This document shows positions 3,190 to 54,320 of a DNA stretch of 64,000 bases, piece by piece. Position 1 is the stretch's first letter. Each line of letters starts with the position of its first letter. The DNA is from a virus (Duplodnaviria > Caudoviricetes). Below the pieces are notes generated by a model that saw nothing but the letters and a program-made list of their open reading frames with translations, was not told where the DNA came from and did not search any database. Made by a program: the position numbers and the translations under genes. The stretch lies in IMG/VR virus record IMGVR_UViG_3300028886_000051. One strand, given 5' to 3'.

Positions 3190-3450
3190 ATGAAGAAGAA
3201 AATTTTAGCAGTTGCATTAGGATTAACATTATGTTTTGGAATGACTAGATGTACCAATGTTGTCAATATTGATAAGACAATTAAGAGTCCGAATTCAAAA
3301 TTATGTGATTTCGAGGTTATTGAAACAAATTTTTATGGAGCAATTTTAGTAGACAAAAACACCAATGTTTTATATTACTGGATTCAGGGTGATAGTATGA
3401 CACCAATCTATAATTCAGATGGAACAGTTAAATTATACGATGGAGAATAA
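3190..3450 (+). CDS. Secreted/lipoprotein-like hypothetical protein
   Basis: Signal peptide MKKKILAVALGLTLC; VDKNTNVLY..MTPIYNSDG motif. Confidence 0.65.
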   Translation: MKKKILAVALGLTLCFGMTRCTNVVNIDKTIKSPNSKLCDFEVIETNFYGAILVDKNTNVLYYWIQGDSMTPIYNSDGTVKLYDGE

Positions 3451-4441: not shown

Positions 4442-4581
4442 AAGGTAATCCTAAAAGTCATTGACAATAGGATAGAGGCTGTGATTCTTAGCCATCTGGC
4501 TTAAAAATAAGGCAGTAAACGGTTTGGTAAAAGACGAAGAATCCGAAGTTTCCTTTGGACGATAAGAAAGAGAGGTAAAAT

Positions 4582-6767: not shown

Positions 6768-7640
6768 TTGAAAAATACATATATTAAATCGCCTCTAAAT
6801 TATGTCGGAGGCAAGTATAAACTGTTACCACAGATTATACCCCTTATACCAAAAGATATTAATACATTTGTAGATTTATTTGGTGGTGGATTTAATGTTG
6901 GGATTAACATTGAAGCAAAGCATTTGGTTTACAATGATATTTGTAAACAGGTGGTAGATTTATTGGAACATTTCTACAATAATGATTCTGAGTATATTCA
7001 TAATATGATTTTAAAAACCATATCTGATTTTGGATTAAGCAGGTCTGATCTTAATGGTTATGAAGCATATGGATGTGAGTCAAGTAAAGGTCTTGGCGAA
7101 TATAATAAACCTAAATACTTTAAATTAAGAAAAGAATACAACTCTAATCCTGATTGGATTAAATTCTATACACTTATAACGTGTTCGTTTAGTAATCAGA
7201 TACGATTCAATTCTAAAGGTGAATTTAATATGCCTTATGGAAAACGTGATTATAATATTTCCCTACAAGAAAAATTAAAGACTTTTGTTGATGAAATGCA
7301 TAAAAAAGACATTCAATTTTGGAATAAAGATTTTAGAGAATGTAATTTTTTTGCAGACGATTTTATATATGTTGATCCACCATATTACAACTCGGTTGCT
7401 ACTTATAATGAAAATGGCGGTTGGTCAGAACAGGACGAGAGAGATTTGTTAAGTGTGTTAGATGTTGTGGACAAGCATGGCAGATTTGCACTAAGCAACA
7501 ATCTTAAATATGATAATCCGTTATTAGATGAATGGAAGAATAAATATAACGTTCATTATCTAAATGGTGATTATAGCAACTGTAATTATCAGAAAAAGGA
7601 CAAGAGTGCCGATTGTGAGGTATTAATCACAAATTATTAA
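6768..7640 (+). CDS. Dam/D12-class adenine methyltransferase
   Basis: NYVGGK, DLFGGG, RFNSKGEFN, VDPPY, EVLITNY. Confidence 0.9.
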   Translation: MKNTYIKSPLNYVGGKYKLLPQIIPLIPKDINTFVDLFGGGFNVGINIEAKHLVYNDICKQVVDLLEHFYNNDSEYIHNMILKTISDFGLSRSDLNGYEAYGCESSKGLGEYNKPKYFKLRKEYNSNPDWIKFYTLITCSFSNQIRFNSKGEFNMPYGKRDYNISLQEKLKTFVDEMHKKDIQFWNKDFRECNFFADDFIYVDPPYYNSVATYNENGGWSEQDERDLLSVLDVVDKHGRFALSNNLKYDNPLLDEWKNKYNVHYLNGDYSNCNYQKKDKSADCEVLITNY

Positions 7641-7644
7641 AATC

Positions 7645-7687
7645 TCAACCTCTGAAACGCCTTAAAATCAAGGCTTTCAGAGGTTGA
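7645..7687. repeat. Motif-B inverted repeat AAASCCTT-N6/7-AAGGSTTT; related copies at 4496-4515, 18762-18802, 26570-26600, 26681-26705, 46707-46737
   Basis: tcaacctctgaaacgccttaaaatcaaggctttcagaggttga. Confidence 0.7.
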
Positions 7688-7900
7688 AAAAGCAAAGGAA
7701 AACCACGTTTCCTTCGAGGAGGTGATTGATTGGATACATCGTGTGAAACTTGTAAATGTAACACCTGTAAGATGAATGAAAATGGTGGCATTTATGGTGG
7801 ATGTTTTGATTGTGAAGATTGCAAAGAACAAGATTTACACTGTGAAGATTGTTCAATGTATGAATATGACAAAGATAGAATGAGTAATTAGGAGAAATTT

Positions 7901-8404
7901 ATGGGTAAATCATTAGAATTTGTAAAAGAACGAATTACATCAGGTCAGTGCAATGGCATGGAGAATAATAAATATGAATCCATGATTGAACAAGATATAC
8001 GAGAGTTATTTACGGTTGTTAATTACACCAAAAATGGAACAATTTTAGCAGATGTACCTTATCTTAAAGGCGACAAACCTTATTTTAATGTGATTATTAA
8101 GCATGATCCAGATGCAGATTTTGAATATTTCACAATGCAGCGTTGCAATTGTGATGGAACGTTTGTATTCTTTCAAGATTTAATGGGTGAGTGCATAGAT
8201 AAAATGATTCATCTTAAAACCTGTAATGTAAATAAGGAGATTCCAAAAGATTTAACTGGATATTCTATTATTTATACGGTTGGAGATTTTGTATTAGCGG
8301 AAGAGTTTGGAGATGAATTTGCAACCAAAGAAAAGCCTTGGATGCAGAGTAGATTCACCGCTATGTTGCCAATTAAGTTTGATATAGTGAAGAATGGAGA
8401 ATAA
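7901..8404 (+). CDS. Hypothetical protein
   Basis: ORF with SD. Confidence 0.7.
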   Translation: MGKSLEFVKERITSGQCNGMENNKYESMIEQDIRELFTVVNYTKNGTILADVPYLKGDKPYFNVIIKHDPDADFEYFTMQRCNCDGTFVFFQDLMGECIDKMIHLKTCNVNKEIPKDLTGYSIIYTVGDFVLAEEFGDEFATKEKPWMQSRFTAMLPIKFDIVKNGE

Positions 8405-17309: not shown

Positions 17310-17454
17310 AGGTTAAAATAACAAGAATCCAATCTTTCATTGGAAAATTTTGTAAAAATAACAACATAAATGGTAGTTGCAAATGCCATAAAATAAAAGA
17401 AAGGAAAAGATAATCCTAGGTAAAAGGTTATGTACATAACACTCAGGTATATGA

Positions 17455-21873: not shown

Positions 21874-22003
21874 CAACATATAGGAAGTATTCTGAAAGAG
21901 TAATCAATCAGATAGTGGTCACAGGTTCATGACCAACATACATAAAAGTCTATGTAAAGAGAAATGGTTCTCATGAATTATCGGTTTCCTTTGGAGGTGA
22001 CAA

Positions 22004-45783: not shown

Positions 45784-46041
45784 ATGGAAACAAGGATAGA
45801 AAAGAAGATAAAGTTTAAAAACTTTGAAGAAGTTGCTAACTTTATTGACGATATGACTTCGGTAAATACTGACGTAGATGTGATTAGCAATAAATACATA
45901 GTATCAGCAAAATCTATTATGGGTTTATTAACATTAGATTTAAGTAAGATCTTGGACATCTATTTTTATGGTAATGAAGAATCAGAGGATTTTAAGAAAT
46001 TTATTGACATAGTTGAAAAATATGCACCAGAAAGGAATTAA
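45784..46041 (+). CDS. HPr-like protein (Ser46 motif, no His15)
   Basis: VSAKSIMGLLTL. Confidence 0.7.
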   Translation: METRIEKKIKFKNFEEVANFIDDMTSVNTDVDVISNKYIVSAKSIMGLLTLDLSKILDIYFYGNEESEDFKKFIDIVEKYAPERN

Positions 46042-46791
46042 TTATATGTATATGATAAATGATAACCATATAGATTTATATAACGTTACAGTAGGCGATT
46101 GTATAGATTTATATGAATTTAAAGGTATAGTTTCAATTCTTAGTGATGGAATGTTGCTTGGATTTGAAAAAGATAGCTGTTTTGAGGGTAAATAGGGTAA
46201 AAATATGACAATATGTACAGATAAATGTACTTCTTGTGTTAATGGAGAGTTAATACAGAAGTCAAGGGCAGATATAAAAATACGTTGTGAAGCAAAAGAT
46301 AAACTTCTACCTTATGGGTGTAAAGTAGAATGTGAATTTTTTGAAAAGAAAAAGGGAGAATAATATGGGTGTAAATATAATTATATTAATTTTAATTGGT
46401 ATTTTTCTTTTAAATTGTTTATTTTGTTTTGCAATGTGTAAAGCAGCATCAGATTTTGATGATATTTCAGATTTAAAAGAAAGTGAGGAAAATAATTATT
46501 TTACCAATAATGACAACACATTCATTAGCTAGAGAATTATTGGAAAAGCCTGACGGATTCGTGACTGCAACTATTGAAGGTAAAGAATTTGCAGTCACAG
46601 GATTCCGAAGAATGGCAACTTGTGCAAATTATGATGATACAAGTTTATATTGGACTTTAGTGTTAAGTGAATGCGAAAATAATAAAAATAAAAAAGTATG
46701 ATGTGTAAAACCCTTGTAAAATAAGGGTTTCAGAGGTTTAAAATTACAATGAAAGGTTGATTTCTTGTGGAATTAAGAAAGGAGATAAAAT

Positions 46792-49017
46792 TTGAAAGTA
46801 ATTAAAAGAGATGGTCGAAAAGTTGATTTTGACCGTAACAAAATTATAAAAGCGGTTCTTGCTGCTTTCAATGAGGTAGATGGTGAAATTACCACAGAAG
46901 CAAAAAGAAAGGCTACAGTAATTACAAATCACATTGAATCATTAAATAAGAAGTCTATGAATGTTGAAGGTATTCAGGACATTATTGAAACGATGCTTAT
47001 GGATGGTAAGCGCAAAGATGTTGCTAGAGCATTTGTGATTTACAGAAATGACAGGACGAGAGAAAGAGAAAAACATAGCGACATTGTAAAGCGTGTTATG
47101 AAAAGAGTAAATGCAACAGATGTTCAGAACGCTAATGCTAATGTGGATGAAAAGAGTTTTTCTGGTAGAGAAAAAGAAGCGTCTGCCGATGTAGGAAAGA
47201 CCATTGCATTAGATTACGGTGGATTAAGCAAAGAGGTCGCACAGGCTCATAAAGATATGCTTATATATCAACATGATTTGGAAAAAGCAATTTATGGAGT
47301 GCATAATTGTCTTAATCTTGACTTTGGAGAAATTTTTACATACGGATTTAAGACACGCAATGGTGATGTAAGACCTCCAAAATCTTTCAGTACAGCTTGT
47401 CAGTTGGTTGCAGTAGCTTTTCAATGTCAGAGTCAGGTTCAGTTTGGAGGAGTTGGAAGTATTCATTTAGACTATGACTTAGCTCCTTTTGTAAAAATGA
47501 GTTTTTCAAAACACTTTAAAGATGGACTTAAATGGGTTGAAAATGAATCAGAAGATTATATTAATCATGTTCCAAAGTCTATTGGTATAGAAGATTTAGA
47601 AGCTAAATCACATAAAAAAGCATATGAATATGCTATGACAATGCTTGAAAATGAAGGTCAACAGTCAGCACAAGGATTATATCATAATTTAAATACTCTT
47701 GAATCACGTCAAGGCTCGCAAGTGCCATTCACTAGCATCAATCTTGGACGAGATACTTCACCAGAGGGAAGATTGGTTACTAAATGGATTATGAATGCAA
47801 GTATTGATGGTATTGGTGAACATCATTTAACAAGTATTTTTCCTATTAGTATTTTTCAATACAAAAATGGTGTTAATGCAAAACCAGGAGATCCAAATTA
47901 TGATTTGAAACAATTGGCATTAAAATCTATGTCAAAAAGAATTTATCCTAACTGGTGCAACGGAAATTGGTCACAGGCACATGAAGATGAAGATGATCCA
48001 GATACATTTTTCTCAACAATGGGCTGCCGTACTTTAGTTGGATATGACCGTCATGGGTTAGGTTATATTCGTCAGGGAAGAGGTAATAATGTACCAAATA
48101 CAATTATTTTGCCTAAGCTTGGCATTGAATATGGTATTTGTCTAGGCAAAAGAGATAAAGCAGATTTAGATGGATTTTGGAACGGTCTTGAAAATGCTTT
48201 ACAGTTATGTGAAAAAGGATTACTTGAAAGGTATGAATTAATCAAAAAACAGTCACCAAAATCAGCACCTTTCATGTATCAGAATCACACTATGAAAGGT
48301 TCAAGAGATTGTACTGAGACAGTAGAAAATGCAGTGAAACATAATACTCTTGGAATTGGATTGATTGGCGTTGCTGAAATGTGTGTTGCCTTATTTGGTA
48401 AAAATCATGCAGAGGATGAAAATATACACGCATTTGCATTATCAGTAGTTAAGAGAATATATGATTATGCAAAAGAAGCCAGTGAAAGAAATGATTTGAA
48501 TTTTGGATGTTATTTTACTCCGGCTGAAGGACTCTGTAGAACAGCATTAAAGGCATTAAGAGAACAATATGGTGTGATTCCAAATGTTACAAGCCATGAA
48601 TATCTTACTAATTCAGTGCACGTGCCAGTATGGCAGAAAGTTTCTATTTATGACAAATTAAGAATTGAAGCTCCATTTACAAAGTATGCAACATCAGGAT
48701 GTATCACTTACATAGAACTTGAATCTACTTTTGTACAGAATACAAAAGCTATAGAAGATATTATTGATTATGCTTTTAATGAGTTAGATATTCCTTATTT
48801 AGCATTTAATTTCCCAATTGATAGTTGTTTAGACTGTGGATACCAAGGTGAATTTAATAATGAATGCCCTCAGTGTGGAAGCAAAAACATTCAACAGTTG
48901 AGACGTGTGACAGGATACCTCACTACGGACTACCGCAATTTTAACGAAGGAAAACAAGCAGAAGTAGAAGAAAGAGTAAAGCATAGTGCATATACAAGCT
49001 TTGGAGATGAGAAATAA
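46792..49017 (+). CDS. nrdD: Anaerobic ribonucleoside-triphosphate reductase
   Basis: ATP cone VIKRDG, MGCRT, TPAEGL, CxxC..CxxC, RRVTGYL. Confidence 0.95.
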   Translation: MKVIKRDGRKVDFDRNKIIKAVLAAFNEVDGEITTEAKRKATVITNHIESLNKKSMNVEGIQDIIETMLMDGKRKDVARAFVIYRNDRTREREKHSDIVKRVMKRVNATDVQNANANVDEKSFSGREKEASADVGKTIALDYGGLSKEVAQAHKDMLIYQHDLEKAIYGVHNCLNLDFGEIFTYGFKTRNGDVRPPKSFSTACQLVAVAFQCQSQVQFGGVGSIHLDYDLAPFVKMSFSKHFKDGLKWVENESEDYINHVPKSIGIEDLEAKSHKKAYEYAMTMLENEGQQSAQGLYHNLNTLESRQGSQVPFTSINLGRDTSPEGRLVTKWIMNASIDGIGEHHLTSIFPISIFQYKNGVNAKPGDPNYDLKQLALKSMSKRIYPNWCNGNWSQAHEDEDDPDTFFSTMGCRTLVGYDRHGLGYIRQGRGNNVPNTIILPKLGIEYGICLGKRDKADLDGFWNGLENALQLCEKGLLERYELIKKQSPKSAPFMYQNHTMKGSRDCTETVENAVKHNTLGIGLIGVAEMCVALFGKNHAEDENIHAFALSVVKRIYDYAKEASERNDLNFGCYFTPAEGLCRTALKALREQYGVIPNVTSHEYLTNSVHVPVWQKVSIYDKLRIEAPFTKYATSGCITYIELESTFVQNTKAIEDIIDYAFNELDIPYLAFNFPIDSCLDCGYQGEFNNECPQCGSKNIQQLRRVTGYLTTDYRNFNEGKQAEVEERVKHSAYTSFGDEK

Positions 49018-49523
49018 TGTTACATATTGCAGGTGTGAATTATGAATCTATCGCAGATTCTGACGGTGTTTCATGTGTGATTTTCTTTAGCGGTTGTAAA
49101 CATTTTTGCAAAGGATGCCATTCAAAAGATACATGGGATTTCAATTATGGAATCCCTGTATCAGATGAATTAGCAATAACAATCAATAATGAAATAGATA
49201 AAAGACCATTCTTATCAGCTCTTGTATTGAGTGGCGGCGATCCAATGTATTCATCGTCAGAAGTATTAGAATTTATATCAAAAATCCACATACCCAACAA
49301 TACAATTTGGTGTTATTCTGGATTCTTAATCGAAGAAATTCAACAAAATTCAGAAATGAAAAAATTACTAGACAAGTGCAATATATTAATAGATGGTCAA
49401 TTTGAGATTGAAAAAAGAGTGATTAATTCTGGGTTTTATGGTAGTAGTAATCAAAGAATTTGGAGAAAAAATAAAAATGGTGAGTGGTTTATAGATTCTT
49501 CACGCTCTCCACATATTCAGTAA
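49017..49523 (+). CDS. nrdG: Anaerobic RNR activating enzyme (complete)
   Basis: CKHFCKGC, SGGDP, IWCYSGF, IDG, GSSNQR. Confidence 0.92.
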   Translation: MLHIAGVNYESIADSDGVSCVIFFSGCKHFCKGCHSKDTWDFNYGIPVSDELAITINNEIDKRPFLSALVLSGGDPMYSSSEVLEFISKIHIPNNTIWCYSGFLIEEIQQNSEMKKLLDKCNILIDGQFEIEKRVINSGFYGSSNQRIWRKNKNGEWFIDSSRSPHIQ

Positions 49524-49644
49524 GTATCTTATTGATGAGATTGGTTAATGAACGTCCATCTTTCTTAGCGAGTTCTTCTAATTTAGCTTTCATGTCTTTG
49601 TTCATATTAACAAGTACACCAGTTTTATCTTTACCGACAGCCAT
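49489..49644 (-). CDS. Ribbon-helix-helix regulator
   Basis: GVLVNMNKDMKAKLEELAKKDGRSLTNLINKIL; SD GGAGGTG. Confidence 0.8.
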   Translation of the reverse strand: MAVGKDKTGVLVNMNKDMKAKLEELAKKDGRSLTNLINKILTEYVESVKNL

Positions 49645-49666
49645 ATTATCACCTCCGTTTGAGAGA

Positions 49667-49742
49667 ATAATAACATATAGAACAGTTATAGTCAAGTTAT
49701 ATAACTTTCTGCTTGACAAAGGTTATATAACGGTTATATAAT
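49667..49742. promoter_or_regulatory. Divergent promoters with GTTATATAAC operator palindromes
   Basis: TTGACA(49713)-18-TATAAT; TTGACT-17-TATTAT on minus strand; GTTATATAAC at 49696 and 49722, near-copy at 49733. Confidence 0.72.
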
Positions 49743-49767
49743 CTAATCAGAAAAGAGGTGAAACAAT

Positions 49768-50982
49768 TTGAAGGTACAAAGATGTGAGCAGCATAATATA
49801 AAGTATGGAACTGATTTTTATAAATTTATTGATGAAATGTGTTTCAAGTCAAAGAATTTATACAATTATGCAAATTATATTATTCGTCAAGAGTTTATAA
49901 ATAATAGAAATTGGATTCAATATAATCAGTTATTTCATTTAGTTAAAGAATCCGAACCTTATAAGGATATTGGCAATAATACAGGTCAAGGTACTTTAAG
50001 AATTTTAGACAAAGCTTGGAAATCTTTTTTTAAGTCAATTAAAGATTGGAAGAAGAATCCAAATAAATATTTAGGTAGACCTAAACTTCCAAAATATTTA
50101 AAAAAGGATGGACGTTTTGTACTGTCCCTTGATAGCAACAAAGTGAAGTTGAAAGATGAATATGTATATTTTGCATGGAAGCCATTTAAACCATACAATA
50201 ATATGTTTAAGACAAACGCACAAGAGAGAATATTACAATGCAGATTCATTCCTAGATGTAGGAAGTATGTAATGGAAATCGTCTATGAAATCGAAGTACC
50301 AGACGTTTCAGAAACTTCTGATAGAGTAGCTGCTATTGATATTGGAGTTGATAATTTCATAACTATGGTAAACAACATTGGTGAAAATCCAATAGCTGTT
50401 AAAGGTGGAGTTATTAAGTCAATTAATCAGTTTTACAATAAACAGAAAGCAAATATTCAGTCAGAGTTGAAGAAAGTTAACGGAAAAGATTGGTCGAACA
50501 AGTTACAGAAACTTACAGACAAGCGGTATGAAATGATTAAATATCAGATGCATTGTATAAGTAAGTATGTAGTTGATTGGTGTGTCTTATATGGAATTGA
50601 CACATTGATTGTAGGACACAACGATGAATGGAAACAAAATAAACAAGGTATGCAGAACTTTACTTACATTCCATATGAACTATTTATTCAGATGCTTGCA
50701 TATAAATGTGAGAACAACGGAATTAGATTCATAGAAAATGAGGAAGCATATACTTCTGGAACATCATTTCTTGATAATGAAGATCCTGTAAAAGAGAACT
50801 ACAATAAGGAACGCAGAGTTCATAGAGGATTATTCATTGCAGATTGTGGAAAAAAGATAAATGCAGATGTAAATGGAGCATATCAAATATTAAAGAAGGT
50901 AATTCCTGAAGCTTTTAGCAAGGGAATAGAGGGTGCAGGTTCACACCCAACAATTATTAACTTGGCTATGCTGAGAGCGTAA
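49768..50982 (+). CDS. tnpB: TnpB-family endonuclease (rearranged RuvC-II, no Zn finger)
   Basis: IDIGVDN, ENEEAYTS, NADVNGAYQI. Confidence 0.88.
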   Translation: MKVQRCEQHNIKYGTDFYKFIDEMCFKSKNLYNYANYIIRQEFINNRNWIQYNQLFHLVKESEPYKDIGNNTGQGTLRILDKAWKSFFKSIKDWKKNPNKYLGRPKLPKYLKKDGRFVLSLDSNKVKLKDEYVYFAWKPFKPYNNMFKTNAQERILQCRFIPRCRKYVMEIVYEIEVPDVSETSDRVAAIDIGVDNFITMVNNIGENPIAVKGGVIKSINQFYNKQKANIQSELKKVNGKDWSNKLQKLTDKRYEMIKYQMHCISKYVVDWCVLYGIDTLIVGHNDEWKQNKQGMQNFTYIPYELFIQMLAYKCENNGIRFIENEEAYTSGTSFLDNEDPVKENYNKERRVHRGLFIADCGKKINADVNGAYQILKKVIPEAFSKGIEGAGSHPTIINLAMLRA

Positions 50983-51016
50983 TGTAAAGGGGATTATAAA
51001 ACCCCATGAATTCCGT

Positions 51017-51304
51017 ATTTCCTTCCCTGAGAAAACTATCTGGTTGTATACAGGGTTTAAATGGGATGATATTATGTGTTCTTTTGCAGGATTACAAGCT
51101 GATCACGTTGTATCAAATGAGAAAGATATTGAAGCGTGGGAAAAGAGAAGAGAAATAATTTCGCTATGCGATATTCTCGTTGACGGGGAATATATAGATG
51201 AGCAGAAAGACCTTACATTGAAGTGGAGGGGTTCAAAAAACCAAAACTGTATTGATGTAAAGCAATCTCTTGCTCAGAATAAAATTGTTTTATATTGTGA
51301 TTAA
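51017..51304 (+). pseudogene. nrdG: 3' remnant of a second, divergent nrdG allele
   Basis: ISFPEKTIWLYTGF...DILVDGEY...WRGSKNQ; lacks the N-terminal CxxxCxxC. Confidence 0.85.
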
Positions 51305-51320
51305 AGGAGAGGAGTAACAA

Positions 51321-51875
51321 ATGCCAAGAAAAACATTAGCAAATACAGAACTACCTATTGAAGAAACAGACATAGAAGAAGGTACATTACCTTTCTTCTT
51401 AATAGATGATGAATATGGTATAGCCTGTGACCAATATTGTTATATGTTGTGTAAAAAGAAACGTGCAAATAGAACAATAAAGGACGAAGATGGCAAACCT
51501 AACCATATAGAGTCATATTGGTCTTGGACACCTTTTAAGTATACGGGTACATTTCAATCTATTATGGAAACATATGTAGAACAGAAGGAACGTGGCTTAA
51601 ATAAAAGAATAGTAAAGTCAAAGGACTTTAAGCAAATACTTGAAACATATAATAAAATTCATAAAATTATATCAAATTCATTAGATGTAGAAGGCTTAAA
51701 CAAATCTTTTATGTCAGTAACAAGTTTACTAGATCAAAAAGAAAAACTTTTACAAGAGATTTCAGAAGTACACGAACTAAAGGAAGACCTATTAAAAGAG
51801 TACAATGAATTACAAACCTTAATAAAAGAAAAACGAAAGATTATTGTAGATAAACACAAACCATTAAAAAATTAG
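51321..51875 (+). CDS. Hypothetical protein
   Basis: ORF with SD. Confidence 0.7.
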   Translation: MPRKTLANTELPIEETDIEEGTLPFFLIDDEYGIACDQYCYMLCKKKRANRTIKDEDGKPNHIESYWSWTPFKYTGTFQSIMETYVEQKERGLNKRIVKSKDFKQILETYNKIHKIISNSLDVEGLNKSFMSVTSLLDQKEKLLQEISEVHELKEDLLKEYNELQTLIKEKRKIIVDKHKPLKN

Positions 51876-51887
51876 GAGGAAAAATAC

Positions 51888-52319
51888 ATGGAGACTATTA
51901 AAATTAAATATTTTGATAATGAGATAGATAAAATAGAAAAGATTAATAAGGGTGATTTAATTGACCTTCGTGCAGCAGAAACAGTAGAAATGAAAAAGGG
52001 TGATTTTAAATTAATTAAGCTCGGTGTCGGTATGAAGCTACCTGATGGATATAAAGCTAATATGTATCCACGTAGCAGTACATATAAAAATTTTGGTATT
52101 ATTTTAGCTAATAGTGTAGGACAGATTGATAATAGTTATAGCGGGGATTCAGATGAATGGAAATTTCCTGCAATAGCATTAAGGGACACAGTAATTCATA
52201 AAAATGATAGAATATGTCAATTTGAGATTCAGAGGATTCAGCCAGAGATTGAGTTTATAGAAGTTGAACATTTAGATGAAGAATCAAGAGGCGGTATTGG
52301 TTCTACTGGAATGAGATAG
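51888..52319 (+). CDS. dut: Trimeric dUTPase
   Basis: [30 protein letters not shown]. Confidence 0.93.
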
Positions 52320-52361
52320 TAAATAAAATATTAATAAGGCATAAAAAGCGAGGAGATAAAA

Positions 52362-52493
52362 ATAGACCACGAATATAAAGAAGGAAATATAAAAGTTATA
52401 ATTCAAATGCCTGAAGAAAACCCAAATGACGAAAAAATAAAAAATGAAGTAAAAAAAATAATGCAGGATGAATTGATATTTTTATTGAAATAA
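52362..52493 (+). CDS. 43-aa ORF with ATA start; candidate recombination directionality factor
   Basis: GAGGAG SD; immediately upstream of the recombinase. Confidence 0.35.
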   Translation: MDHEYKEGNIKVIIQMPEENPNDEKIKNEVKKIMQDELIFLLK

Positions 52494-52574
52494 GAAAAGT
52501 AAATGGGTATAATTTAGTGTATACAAATCTAATAATAATTTTTGTATACACTATTTTTTTTAGGAGTGATTTTA

Positions 52575-54320
52575 ATGAAGAAAGTAAGAATACTTTTAAG
52601 AGTAAGTTCCAATCAACAGTTAGAAGCCGATGGCGATTTAACAGTTCAAAGAGAAATTGTTTTAGACTATATTTCTAAACATGATGATTGGGAATTAGAT
52701 AATAAAGAATATTTTGAAGGTAGCAATAGTGGATATAAAAATGCAGTCAAAGACAGAGATGTATTGCAAGAGGCACTATCTGATGCAAAAAATAATGAGT
52801 ATGATATTCTCGTAGTATACAAAGATGATAGAATTGGTAGACGCATGTGGGAGATTGGTTCATATGTAATGCAACTAAAATCATATGGTGTTGATATTTA
52901 TACAACAAAAGATGGTTGTATATCGCCTGAAAGTAACGATGTTATGGGGCAGATGATGCTTGCGTTACGATATGGTAATGCACAAAAATCAAGCTCTGAT
53001 ACGGGACAAAGAGTAAAGGATACAGCCCAAAAACTAGTTAAACGTGGTAAATTTATGGGTGGAAAAGCACCTTATGGCTATGAGCTTGTATTGTCAGGAG
53101 AATTATCTAAACATGGAAGAGCTTTGCATAAATTAAAGAAAATACCAGAACAAGTAGAAGTTGTGAAATATATATATGATTTATCATTAAATAAGGAATT
53201 TGGTTCATCTAAAATTGCAAAAATTTTAAATGAGGATACTTATTATCATAGTTTAGCACCAAATGACGATTGGAAAAATGGAACAGTTACCTCAATTTTA
53301 ACAAATCCTATTTATTGTGGAATTACTGCTTATAAACGAAGAGAAAAAATTGATGGTAAATATCATTCTTTAGATTCAAAAGATTGGGTTTATGCAGATA
53401 AAATAAATGAAGAAATTGCAATAATAGACAAAGATATTTGGAACAATGTACAAGAAAAAAGAAGTAATCGTTCAGTGAGATATAGAGAAGGGGTATTAAA
53501 GGAAAAGGGGATAAATGTACTATTAAGAAATGACGGAGAATTGGCATTAATTGATGTTGCGTATTGTGGATATTGTGGCAGAAAATTAACAAATGGAACT
53601 AAATACAATTATTGGACAATAAAAGGTACTGGCGAAAAAAGAGCAAGTAAAATTCCAATATATAAATGTCAAACTGCTTGGTCTGGTGTTCCACATGATA
53701 GTACAAAAATGTATAGAGCTGATAAAATAGAAGAAATTGTTTTTAAATATGTAGCACAATATATTTCTATTTTACAAGATAATTCAGAAGTATATGAAAA
53801 GATACAAGAGAATAATAAAAAAGAAAGAGAATTATTTAACCAAAAAATAAAGAAAGAGAAACAAGAACTTGATAAAATAATTGATGGAATAGAAGTAATG
53901 AAAAGCCATCTTCCAGAAGCAATGTTGGGAAATTATCCATTAAGTGTTGAAATCATTGCTGATACAATAAAACAATTTGAAGAAAAAGAAAAAATACAAA
54001 AACAAAAAATACAAGAATTAAAGCAACAATATGAAGAAATGGAAATCGAAGAACAGGATTGGGATGAAGTATGTAAAATCATTCCTTCATGGATAGAAGT
54101 TTTTAATAATGCAGATAAAAAAACTAAACGTGTCTTAATCAATAAATTAGTTGATAAGGTTATTATCAAAAAAGATGAAATAACAGTTAAATTTAAGATA
54201 AATCTTAGTAAGCCCAGGCAACTCCAACCACGAATAAGTGAATACAATGGGGTACAGGAACAGCTACTCATTCGTGGTTACAGGAACATAATATTAAAGG
54301 ATTTAATAATTCAATATTAA
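52575..54320 (+). CDS. Large serine recombinase (integrase)
   Basis: LLRVSS, DRIGR, PYGY, NPIYCG, CGYCG Zn ribbon, coiled coil. Confidence 0.92.
   Translation: MKKVRILLRVSSNQQLEADGDLTVQREIVLDYISKHDDWELDNKEYFEGSNSGYKNAVKDRDVLQEALSDAKNNEYDILVVYKDDRIGRRMWEIGSYVMQLKSYGVDIYTTKDGCISPESNDVMGQMMLALRYGNAQKSSSDTGQRVKDTAQKLVKRGKFMGGKAPYGYELVLSGELSKHGRALHKLKKIPEQVEVVKYIYDLSLNKEFGSSKIAKILNEDTYYHSLAPNDDWKNGTVTSILTNPIYCGITAYKRREKIDGKYHSLDSKDWVYADKINEEIAIIDKDIWNNVQEKRSNRSVRYREGVLKEKGINVLLRNDGELALIDVAYCGYCGRKLTNGTKYNYWTIKGTGEKRASKIPIYKCQTAWSGVPHDSTKMYRADKIEEIVFKYVAQYISILQDNSEVYEKIQENNKKERELFNQKIKKEKQELDKIIDGIEVMKSHLPEAMLGNYPLSVEIIADTIKQFEEKEKIQKQKIQELKQQYEEMEIEEQDWDEVCKIIPSWIEVFNNADKKTKRVLINKLVDKVIIKKDEITVKFKINLSKPRQLQPRISEYNGVQEQLLIRGYRNIILKDLIIQY
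54226..54279. other. Candidate attP inside the integrase 3' end
   Basis: AACCACGAATAAGT...ACTCATTCGTGGTT (13/14 inverted match), 54 bp span. Confidence 0.6.

Follow-up and report, generated by a model that had tools for sequence, protein, structure and literature searches.

A tnpB unit ends on a dyad site inside a phage nrdG gene, in a possible homing layout

A stretch of 64,000 nucleotides from the IMG/VR virus record IMGVR_UViG_3300028886_000051 (hereafter the window; Duplodnaviria, Caudoviricetes), part of the 145.7-kb record of a gut phage, was analysed around positions 46749 to 51304. Here the genes for an anaerobic ribonucleotide reductase (nrdD) and its activase (nrdG) are followed by a small putative ribbon-helix-helix (RHH) gene, arc, by tnpB, and by the 3' half of a second nrdG. 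The best explanation is probably that the right end of a tnpB unit lies on a dyad site inside an nrdG of the type common in this phage family, that the sequence on its left side has been replaced, and that the result has a possible homing layout. The structural part of this explanation is very likely correct; a homing function of the cassette is a tentative proposal. The locus is a patchwork of four modules of separate history: an nrdD-nrdG pair of a type designated C, an Arc module, tnpB with an omega-RNA-like scaffold, and the family-type nrdG 3' half. One junction of this patchwork is at a dyad, another within a hairpin and a third at a ribosome-binding site; at the remaining one the right end of tnpB meets the in-gene dyad. 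An earlier reading made from the letters of this DNA alone (the sequence-only reading) had described one block bounded by two sites, a description contradicted by the four modules and by the other junctions, in the hairpin at about 49498-49505 and at 49761/49762.

Both 18-nucleotide sites named in that reading were confirmed, ATGAAT-TCCGTA-TTTCCT at 51006-51023 and ATGAAA-GGTTGA-TTTCTT at 46749-46766, each with a left arm, a spacer and a right arm of six bases. The form ATGAAW-N6-TTTCYT occurs six times in the window against 0.30 expected, and six copies were reached in none of 100 shuffles. With the looser form A[AT]GAA[AT]-N6-TTTC[CT]T, about 20 clear copies are found at gene boundaries, usually 10-35 nucleotides before a start codon and sometimes after a hairpin.

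As had been proposed, a complete nrdG (49017-49523, plus strand) is followed after tnpB by the 3' half of a different nrdG. The complete copy, of type C (...PNNTIWCYSGF...), matches Fer4_12 over positions 4-136 of 137 (1.7e-34), and the remnant (51011-51304, plus strand) matches it over positions 79-136 only (3e-13). The remnant is a start-less open frame of the family type, 97 codons without a stop, with the translation (HE)FRISFPEKTIWLYTGF.... Relatives of the phage comprise about 220 contigs, mostly of 90-195 kb; a search with the remnant detected 219 nrdG relatives, and 80 of these loci were examined. All 80 carry an uninterrupted nrdG, and at the position of the junction the intact alleles read A(A/C/G)(G/C)AAA-TCCGTA-TTTC(C/T/A)T, with AAGAAA, AACAAA or AGGAAA as left arms. 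An uninterrupted allele coding K-E-I-R-I-S, with an in-gene AAGAAA-TCCGTA-TTTCCT, had been predicted, and its sequence, AAGAAATCCGTATTTCCT, was recovered verbatim in 12 of the 80 loci. By blastn, homology of the remnant to intact alleles starts at 51008 or 51009 (at 51004 or 51013 in a few) and ends at 51304-51311, with 72-85% nucleotide identity from 51008 onward. The expected limit of homology at the boundary of left arm and spacer was thus borne out (starts at 51008-51013): homology does not end well away from the site, and the intact alleles do not lack the motif. The ratio of nonsynonymous to synonymous substitution (dN/dS) between the remnant and intact alleles is 0.16-0.18, near the 0.14 obtained between two intact alleles, and truncation of the remnant is therefore recent relative to the divergence of the alleles.

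The site at this junction had been interpreted as a hybrid with a new left arm. The arm does differ from those of the intact alleles, but it is not a swapped generic arm: ATGAAT at 51006-51011 is the invariant terminus of the tnpB unit and is found in every copy of it. The comparison of tnpB covered 24 viral loci and one bacterial contig (Eubacterium segne). The shared unit, 49750-51011/12, recurs with 76-92% identity and unrelated flanks in at least 24 viral contigs (L084-L097 and L137 among them). It begins at a ribosome-binding site about 20 nucleotides before the start codon, and in at least eight lineages it ends with GTAAA, a covarying hairpin and ATGAAT, followed by a lineage-specific 6-mer spacer and TTTC. 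This right-end geometry recurs with nine different spacers. A scan of contigs for the unit gave the E. segne copy, with flanks as in L085, and two copies in metagenome-assembled genomes, and returned no full element bearing TnpA. Because the tnpB locus in the E. segne contig is nearly identical, the hosts of the phage are probably Lachnospiraceae.

The geometry of insertion is clearest at another dyad, whose spacer is TGTGAG and which is occupied in six contigs and empty in seven, flanked by the same genes in either state. In the empty allele the sequence is ...ATGAAA/TGTGAG-TTTCAAGAGGAGG and in the occupied allele ...ATGAAA/AAGAAAGG..tnpB..hairpin-ATGAAT/TGTGAG-TTTCAAGAGGAGG (slashes mark the boundaries). 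The right end of the unit lies exactly between left arm and spacer, ATGAAA is on the far side, and there is no target duplication. The lineage with spacer CCAATC provides a second empty/occupied case, for the right side (L099 and L107 against window position 17323). For the nrdG copy of the unit, only the right junction is visible. As judged by the right junction, the dyads are preferred landing sites of the tnpB element, and at least some dyad-associated junctions and hairpins are ends or relics of tnpB. At the CCAATC site itself, window 17323-17340 (AAGAAT-CCAATC-TTTC) is the empty counterpart of 5217-5240 in L099 and L107 (ATGAAT-CCAATC-TTTC), where a 59%-identical tnpB sits. Directly upstream of the window 17323 dyad there is a degenerate hairpin copy.

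An omega-RNA-like scaffold together with the right end occupies 50782-51011 (plus strand), with a terminal hairpin at 50990-51005 followed by ATGAAT. Over the last ~230 nucleotides of nine copies, 11 pairs changed on both sides, against 5.1 +/- 1.5 in shuffles (0/500) and 1-3 in a control with slid alignments. All four pairs of the terminal hairpin covary, and pairing of ATGAAT with an internal ATTCAT (50833-50838) is predicted for each of the nine copies. No Rfam family matches the scaffold RNA, and the whole window gave no Rfam hit at the gathering threshold. The predicted guide and target segment, TCCGTATTTCCTTCCCTGAG (51012-51031, plus strand), covers spacer and right arm of the in-gene dyad and the bases that come after. 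From the organisation of IS200/IS605 elements we infer that the guide would be the flank of the right end, starting TCCGTATTTCCTTCCC... (also given as TCCGTATTTCC...). The bases TCCGTATTTCCTTCCCTGAG follow A(A/C/G)(G/C)AAA in 69 of the 80 intact nrdG alleles, and the type C nrdG of the phage has no copy of the in-gene target sequence.

A covariance model of the last 100 nucleotides (R1) also detected tnpB-less relics of the last ~90 nucleotides at 21897-21978 (E 8.5e-7) and 4457-4542 (E 0.085). These fill two intergenic gaps, each ends in a dyad left arm (ATGAAT at 21973, AAGAAT at 4537), and they could be solo guide RNAs or decay products. The same model recovers a second, broken tnpB outside the window (G000:C1:28166-29345; L003 1500-2704). 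This copy is 71% identical, lies after a tail-fibre-like gene, is split into frames of 256 and 141 residues, and is probably a pseudogene.

The tnpB gene (49768-50982, plus strand) encodes a protein of 404 residues of the RuvC-II-rearranged type, with matches to OrfB_IS605 (PF01385, 2.8e-17), to Cas12f1-like_TNB (PF07282, 1.1e-11) and, at 1e-6, to Cas12f/TnpB-like chains in the PDB. The RuvC-I and RuvC-III aspartates are present (IDIGV, NADVN). At the canonical RuvC-II glutamate there is a glycine (LIVGHND against IQMEDL of Cas12f 8j12, with G-H-N set against M-E-D in the alignment), and the zinc-finger cysteines are absent. TnpB clades in which the RuvC-II glutamate is replaced by glycine exist, some of them virus-specific and some without a zinc finger, and an alternative glutamate has been proposed (PMC10691335). 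In the present protein ENEEAYTS, about 38 residues downstream of LIVGHND, could hold a candidate alternative glutamate.

The Arc module (about 49498-49761, minus strand) has a truncated left end, where just the right half of a hairpin is kept (CTCTCC at 49505); it also contains arc and divergent promoters and ends at GAGGTGA. The gene probably spans 49489-49644 on the minus strand with the start MAVGKDK (RHH frame within 49489-49719), and its product matches RHH_5 at 7.9e-5 and 22.8 bits, below the 26-bit Pfam cut-off. The promoter facing tnpB, TTGACA-N18-TATAAT at 49713-49742, is a 12/12 sigma-70-type match, and that facing arc matches at 10/12; short palindromic repeats of the GTTATATAAC type lie over the promoter at 49696, 49722 and 49733. 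Positions 49505-49761 are 83-91.5% identical to seven viral loci (L114-L120), in which the Arc module is divergent from a canonical zinc-finger TnpB of 369-371 residues. L120 has the full left-end hairpin, GGAGAGTCAG..CTGACTCTCC, of which the window keeps the right half only. The join of Arc to nrdG lies inside this hairpin (about 49498-49505), and the join to tnpB, at 49761/49762, falls after the ribosome-binding site GAGGTGA and before the start codon. That RHH and tnpB form one native element was considered and rejected, the RHH module being present in none of the 24 tnpB loci and its homologues being paired with another type of TnpB. Sequence comparison thus indicates that the module was borrowed from a different TnpB element. 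Among its relatives, L114-L118 (about 3200-3290, reverse strand) are canonical Arc-TnpB elements whose left end has a clear hairpin, GGATTCG...CGAATCC. Their flanking sequences part immediately to the left of TTGAAAAAT, and the boundary by eye is TTGAAA/AAT, beside a TTGAAA that resembles a dyad left arm. A different RHH-like open reading frame (ORF) of 52 residues was seen in L084 (3569-3727), on the same strand as the closest tnpB relatives and about 270 nucleotides upstream of them, so that the pairing of RHH with tnpB recurs in more than one form.

Left of the Arc module are the type C genes, nrdD at 46792-49017 (plus strand; Pfam NRDD 6.7e-149, ATP-cone) and the complete nrdG. They are preceded by a portable linker of about 45 nucleotides (46749-46791, plus strand) made of the dyad at 46749-46766, a conserved 5' leader and a ribosome-binding site. 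In many relatives a linker of 88-97% identity stands before nrdD or before unrelated small genes. The type C pair was also found in L109, with 94.6% identity over 46752-49468; that locus lacks arc, tnpB and the remnant. A resumption of homology at the 46749 site had been named as a point to check. The breakpoint is at the site against L109, where it is inside the dyad (46752), but not against other relatives, where it is at 46791, at the end of the ATP-cone (47062) or at 47153. The 5' ATP-cone part of nrdD (46795-47062) is of the common family type, and L013, L014, L026 and L027 are 93-97% identical up to 47062 only and about 68% identical beyond. At its other end the type C nrdG is native to about 49497, its C-terminus aligning with L108 and L110 as far as GEW(F/H/Y). 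Its last codons (..SPHIQ*) are the antisense of the 3' end of arc, and the same SPHIQ* tail occurs on an unrelated neighbouring ORF in L120. Since the fragment of the Arc module is joined to type C nrdG at about 49498, SPHIQ* is a foreign tail.

Three relatives have unrelated small genes inserted between the dyad-leader and nrdD (L004 5080-5400, L025 5452-5555, L030 5200-5370), with the ribosome-binding site GAAAGGAGATA duplicated at both ends of the inserts. In L092 (4223-5300) the tnpB unit is directly upstream of a small ORF with the start MKVIKD, compared with MKVIKR in nrdD. The ORF downstream of the remnant (51321-51875) has no relatives among the viral contigs, and megablast of 46000-52400 gave no match among INPHARED phages.

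The events that would have produced this arrangement can be outlined as follows. A tnpB unit of the IS200/IS605 family would have come to lie at the left arm, which resembles a target-adjacent motif (TAM), of the dyad inside a family-type nrdG. The last six bases of the unit, ATGAAT, mimic a left arm, so that the dyad looks restored as a "hybrid". The left flank would subsequently have been replaced by recombination with a genome carrying type C nrdDG (and arc). The likeliest route would be an exchange between co-infecting relatives in which tnpB, ribosome-binding sites and leader linkers served as short portable homologies, tnpB itself being the most likely of these for the replacement of the left flank. 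The replacement would have brought in the target-less nrdD-nrdG pair of type C and a repressor-promoter fragment of Arc that would now drive tnpB. A guide beginning TCCGTATTTCCTTCCC... would make the intact nrdG of relatives the target of TnpB (TAM ...GAAA), and repair of the break from the carrier genome would copy the Arc-tnpB unit together with the resistant nrdDG allele, which would amount to homing with co-conversion. The layout is that of a homing or marker-exclusion cassette, because the predicted guide corresponds to the conserved core of the relatives' nrdG and the carrier allele is target-less. In L047 (about 7990-8010) an intact nrdG has ATGAAT-TCCGTA (VHEFRIS), with the left arm seen at the window remnant and at the end of tnpB; this arm could be the footprint of a co-conversion or else a TAM-escape variant.

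A wider version of this idea, that the dyad is a phage-wide address system for RNA-guided nucleases, with a left arm ...GAAA as TAM and the spacer plus next bases as guide target, and that the nrdG case is a self-contained gene drive, is unlikely on the present evidence. Under such a system, the TAM look-alike end ..GAAT would restore the dyad and protect its own locus, TnpB would cut the nrdG core of competitors, and repair would copy tnpB, the Arc control and the resistant nrdD-nrdG. The sites in L047 (ATGAAT-TCCGTA) and at window 17323 (AAGAAT-CCAATC) would be TAM-escape variants, and repeated rounds would explain the joining of unrelated nrdG N-terminal halves exactly at the dyad.

Such joining is a feature of the whole phage family. 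In L004-L083, where nrdG lies at about 7600-8300 of each locus, the gene is a mosaic in which three or more unrelated N-terminal halves (A, B and B') are combined in nearly every way with 15 or more middle segments. The halves are joined through an island of about 50 nucleotides that is nearly invariant even at synonymous positions, in which arginine is always CGT despite the AT-rich genome, and the left edge of the island is exactly the in-gene dyad. The B' alleles (L005, L009, L029 and L051; about 7850-8010) contain an in-frame insert of 87 nucleotides (REKYPISQN...ENSKE) flanked by an 11-nucleotide direct repeat, AAGGAAATCCG, that corresponds to the dyad left arm and part of the spacer. The sequence-only reading had considered the sites to be recombination junctions. 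In so far as the dyad is the left edge of a reassorting nrdG island this can be retained; the junction does not show that dyads are substrates of a dedicated cassette-exchange recombinase.

Such a system would be a dedicated site-specific recombination of the phage, acting on a tyrosine-recombinase-type core with a 6-bp spacer and cutting at the arm/spacer boundary, with tnpB merely one cassette. It is improbable here, even if several observations are what it would predict. The enrichment of the motif (6 against 0.3, with the 20 or so clear copies at gene boundaries), the junction exactly at the arm/spacer boundary and the start of L109 homology inside the 46749 dyad would all fit, yet the breakpoints are not confined to the dyad: others fall at ribosome-binding sites or start codons, inside the hairpin and inside nrdD, and the same spacer and leader stand before different genes. 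The in-gene dyad as the exact edge of an island that joins unrelated N-terminal halves in frame, and the B' insert between repeats of left arm and spacer, also favour exchange at the dyad; differing spacers between sites would nevertheless block a complete exchange by a tyrosine recombinase. The right arm TTTC is present at every tnpB landing site, the in-gene one included, which a 5-nucleotide TAM alone does not predict, but ATGAAT is invariant in the tnpB copies and covaries with an internal segment while the left arms of other dyads vary. The genome does encode two tyrosine recombinases (C1:132454-132927 and C1:20307-20828) and one large serine recombinase (592 residues; 52542-54320, 1.2 kb downstream of the nrdG remnant); no recombinase is linked to the sites, though such a link was not looked for. 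A crossover by a serine recombinase at the centre of the spacer was rejected, as the spacer TCCGTA is recipient-type throughout and the closest tnpB copies have TGACGA. A dedicated cassette-exchange system is not needed to explain the locus.

Ordinary homologous or short-homology recombination at conserved gene-boundary linkers, here the regulatory dyads, the ribosome-binding sites and the nrdG island, would make the position of tnpB incidental, with a precedent in the promoter/stem-loop (PeSL) cassettes (PMC2839356, PMC4122927); alternatively, the contig would be an assembly chimera across a repeated tnpB. We consider either to be a poor candidate for the locus as a whole. Free reassortment of nrdG halves across the ~50-nucleotide island, small genes inserted with a duplicated GAAAGGAGATA and the arc/tnpB junction between ribosome-binding site and start codon are all of the kind that linker recombination would leave; the present junction, in contrast, lies right at the leftmost margin of the island, with no more than GAA in common with the partner. 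Copies of tnpB more than 90% identical in related phages could mislead an assembler, but the passage from the tnpB right end to the nrdG 3' half stays a real short-range junction, and incidental crossovers would not give a right-end geometry as regular as that repeated at nine spacers and in one pair of empty and occupied alleles. Linker recombination or a chimera explains the patchwork, not the regular right-end geometry. Two further schemes were also set aside. The simple insertion of a single element was rejected because the 3' end of type C nrdG, on the left, and the middle of family nrdG, on the right, are contiguous in no genome, and an IStron or group I intron around tnpB was dropped because there is no Rfam hit and the type C nrdG is complete, so that no splicing is needed.

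Several points weigh against the preferred explanation, that of a tnpB right end on the in-gene dyad with a replaced left side and a possible homing layout. A bare 5-nucleotide TAM does not explain the right arm at every site, the dyad at the island edge or the repeat-flanked B' insert. The left boundary of the unit is fixed by one empty/occupied pair only, in which the left flank has diverged. Y1 TnpA (PF01797) is absent from the 145.7-kb genome, so the element would be non-autonomous, and a left-end hairpin sought in the first ~150 nucleotides of eight copies gave no conserved structure; the first occupation of new sites is therefore left unexplained. Folded as a single sequence, 50830-51031 does no better than shuffled sequences (z = +0.41). 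Nuclease activity is not implied for a TnpB without the canonical RuvC-II glutamate, and the terminal ATGAAT itself looks like a TAM, so that self-cleavage would be avoided only if the last base (T against A) or position 2 matters. The nrdG-tnpB arrangement is a singleton that recurs neither in the 80 nrdG relatives nor in the 24 tnpB loci, which speaks against efficient drive. Finally, the contig could be chimeric across tnpB; the right junction would stay real and the two flanks would be unlinked.

Among known systems, the locus belongs to the IS605-family tnpB/Arc elements, in a form that is adapted to phages, targets dyads and lacks a left end. It shares with IS200/IS605 tnpB/OMEGA elements (for example ISDra2) the RuvC-I and RuvC-III aspartates of TnpB, a structured RNA that overlaps the tnpB 3' end and reaches to the right end, insertion 3' of a short motif without target duplication, as seen at the TGTGAG site, and a right-end flank that would serve as guide; glycine at the glutamate position and zinc-finger loss are as in the RuvC-II-rearranged clades (PMC10691335). 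In this phage, however, TnpA is missing and a left-end hairpin cannot be recognised, the start of the unit is a ribosome-binding site, its terminal hexamer mimics the left arm of the target, its RNA is without an Rfam match, and landing is on a phage-wide 18-bp dyad and not on a bare TAM of 4-5 nucleotides. Arc has been described to repress IS605 promoters (Moon et al., bioRxiv 10.64898/2026.09.24.754181). The present module resembles that system in its small RHH gene divergent from tnpB, in its promoter with GTTATATAAC palindromes, and in having homologues of 83-91% identity beside canonical TnpB in seven other viral contigs, and it differs in being a fragment with a halved left-end hairpin, rejoined to a tnpB of another subfamily and with no tnpA adjoining. 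A putative role of the arc product as repressor of the tnpB promoter would fit this comparison.

Free-standing homing endonuclease genes (HEGs) of phages are known for intronless homing, marker exclusion and HEG islands, with nrd genes as frequent targets (PMC13565253; PMC10448857). As in those systems, a nuclease gene, within or beside a conserved essential gene, marks the edge of an exchanged segment; the variant allele of the carrier lacks the target; and the flanking remnant could act as a homology arm. The nuclease here would in contrast be RNA-guided, with its specificity set by the flank, and the arrangement is a singleton known from sequence. With the PeSL cassettes of T4-type phages (PMC2839356; PMC4122927) the dyads have in common that they are short motifs at gene boundaries, often a hairpin plus motif before a ribosome-binding site, where insertions and replacements end. 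They differ in their 6-6-6 form with variable spacers and in having no recognisable promoter, and PeSLs act through homologous recombination and involve no tnpB.

The puzzle of a "hybrid site" has thus become a concrete case of where tnpB elements land in this phage family: a tnpB/omega-RNA unit that lacks both TnpA and a left end lands on a phage dyad within an essential-type gene, and a replacement allele stands alongside. The idea of cassette-exchange sites calls for caution accordingly, some dyad junctions and hairpins being ends or relics of tnpB. If the explanation is true, both TAM and guide would be identified for a virus-associated TnpB clade with rearranged RuvC-II. If the nuclease is active, the locus would represent natural RNA-guided homing with co-conversion between phages; the homing of transposons into co-infecting phages has so far been proposed only as a concept (PMC13565253).

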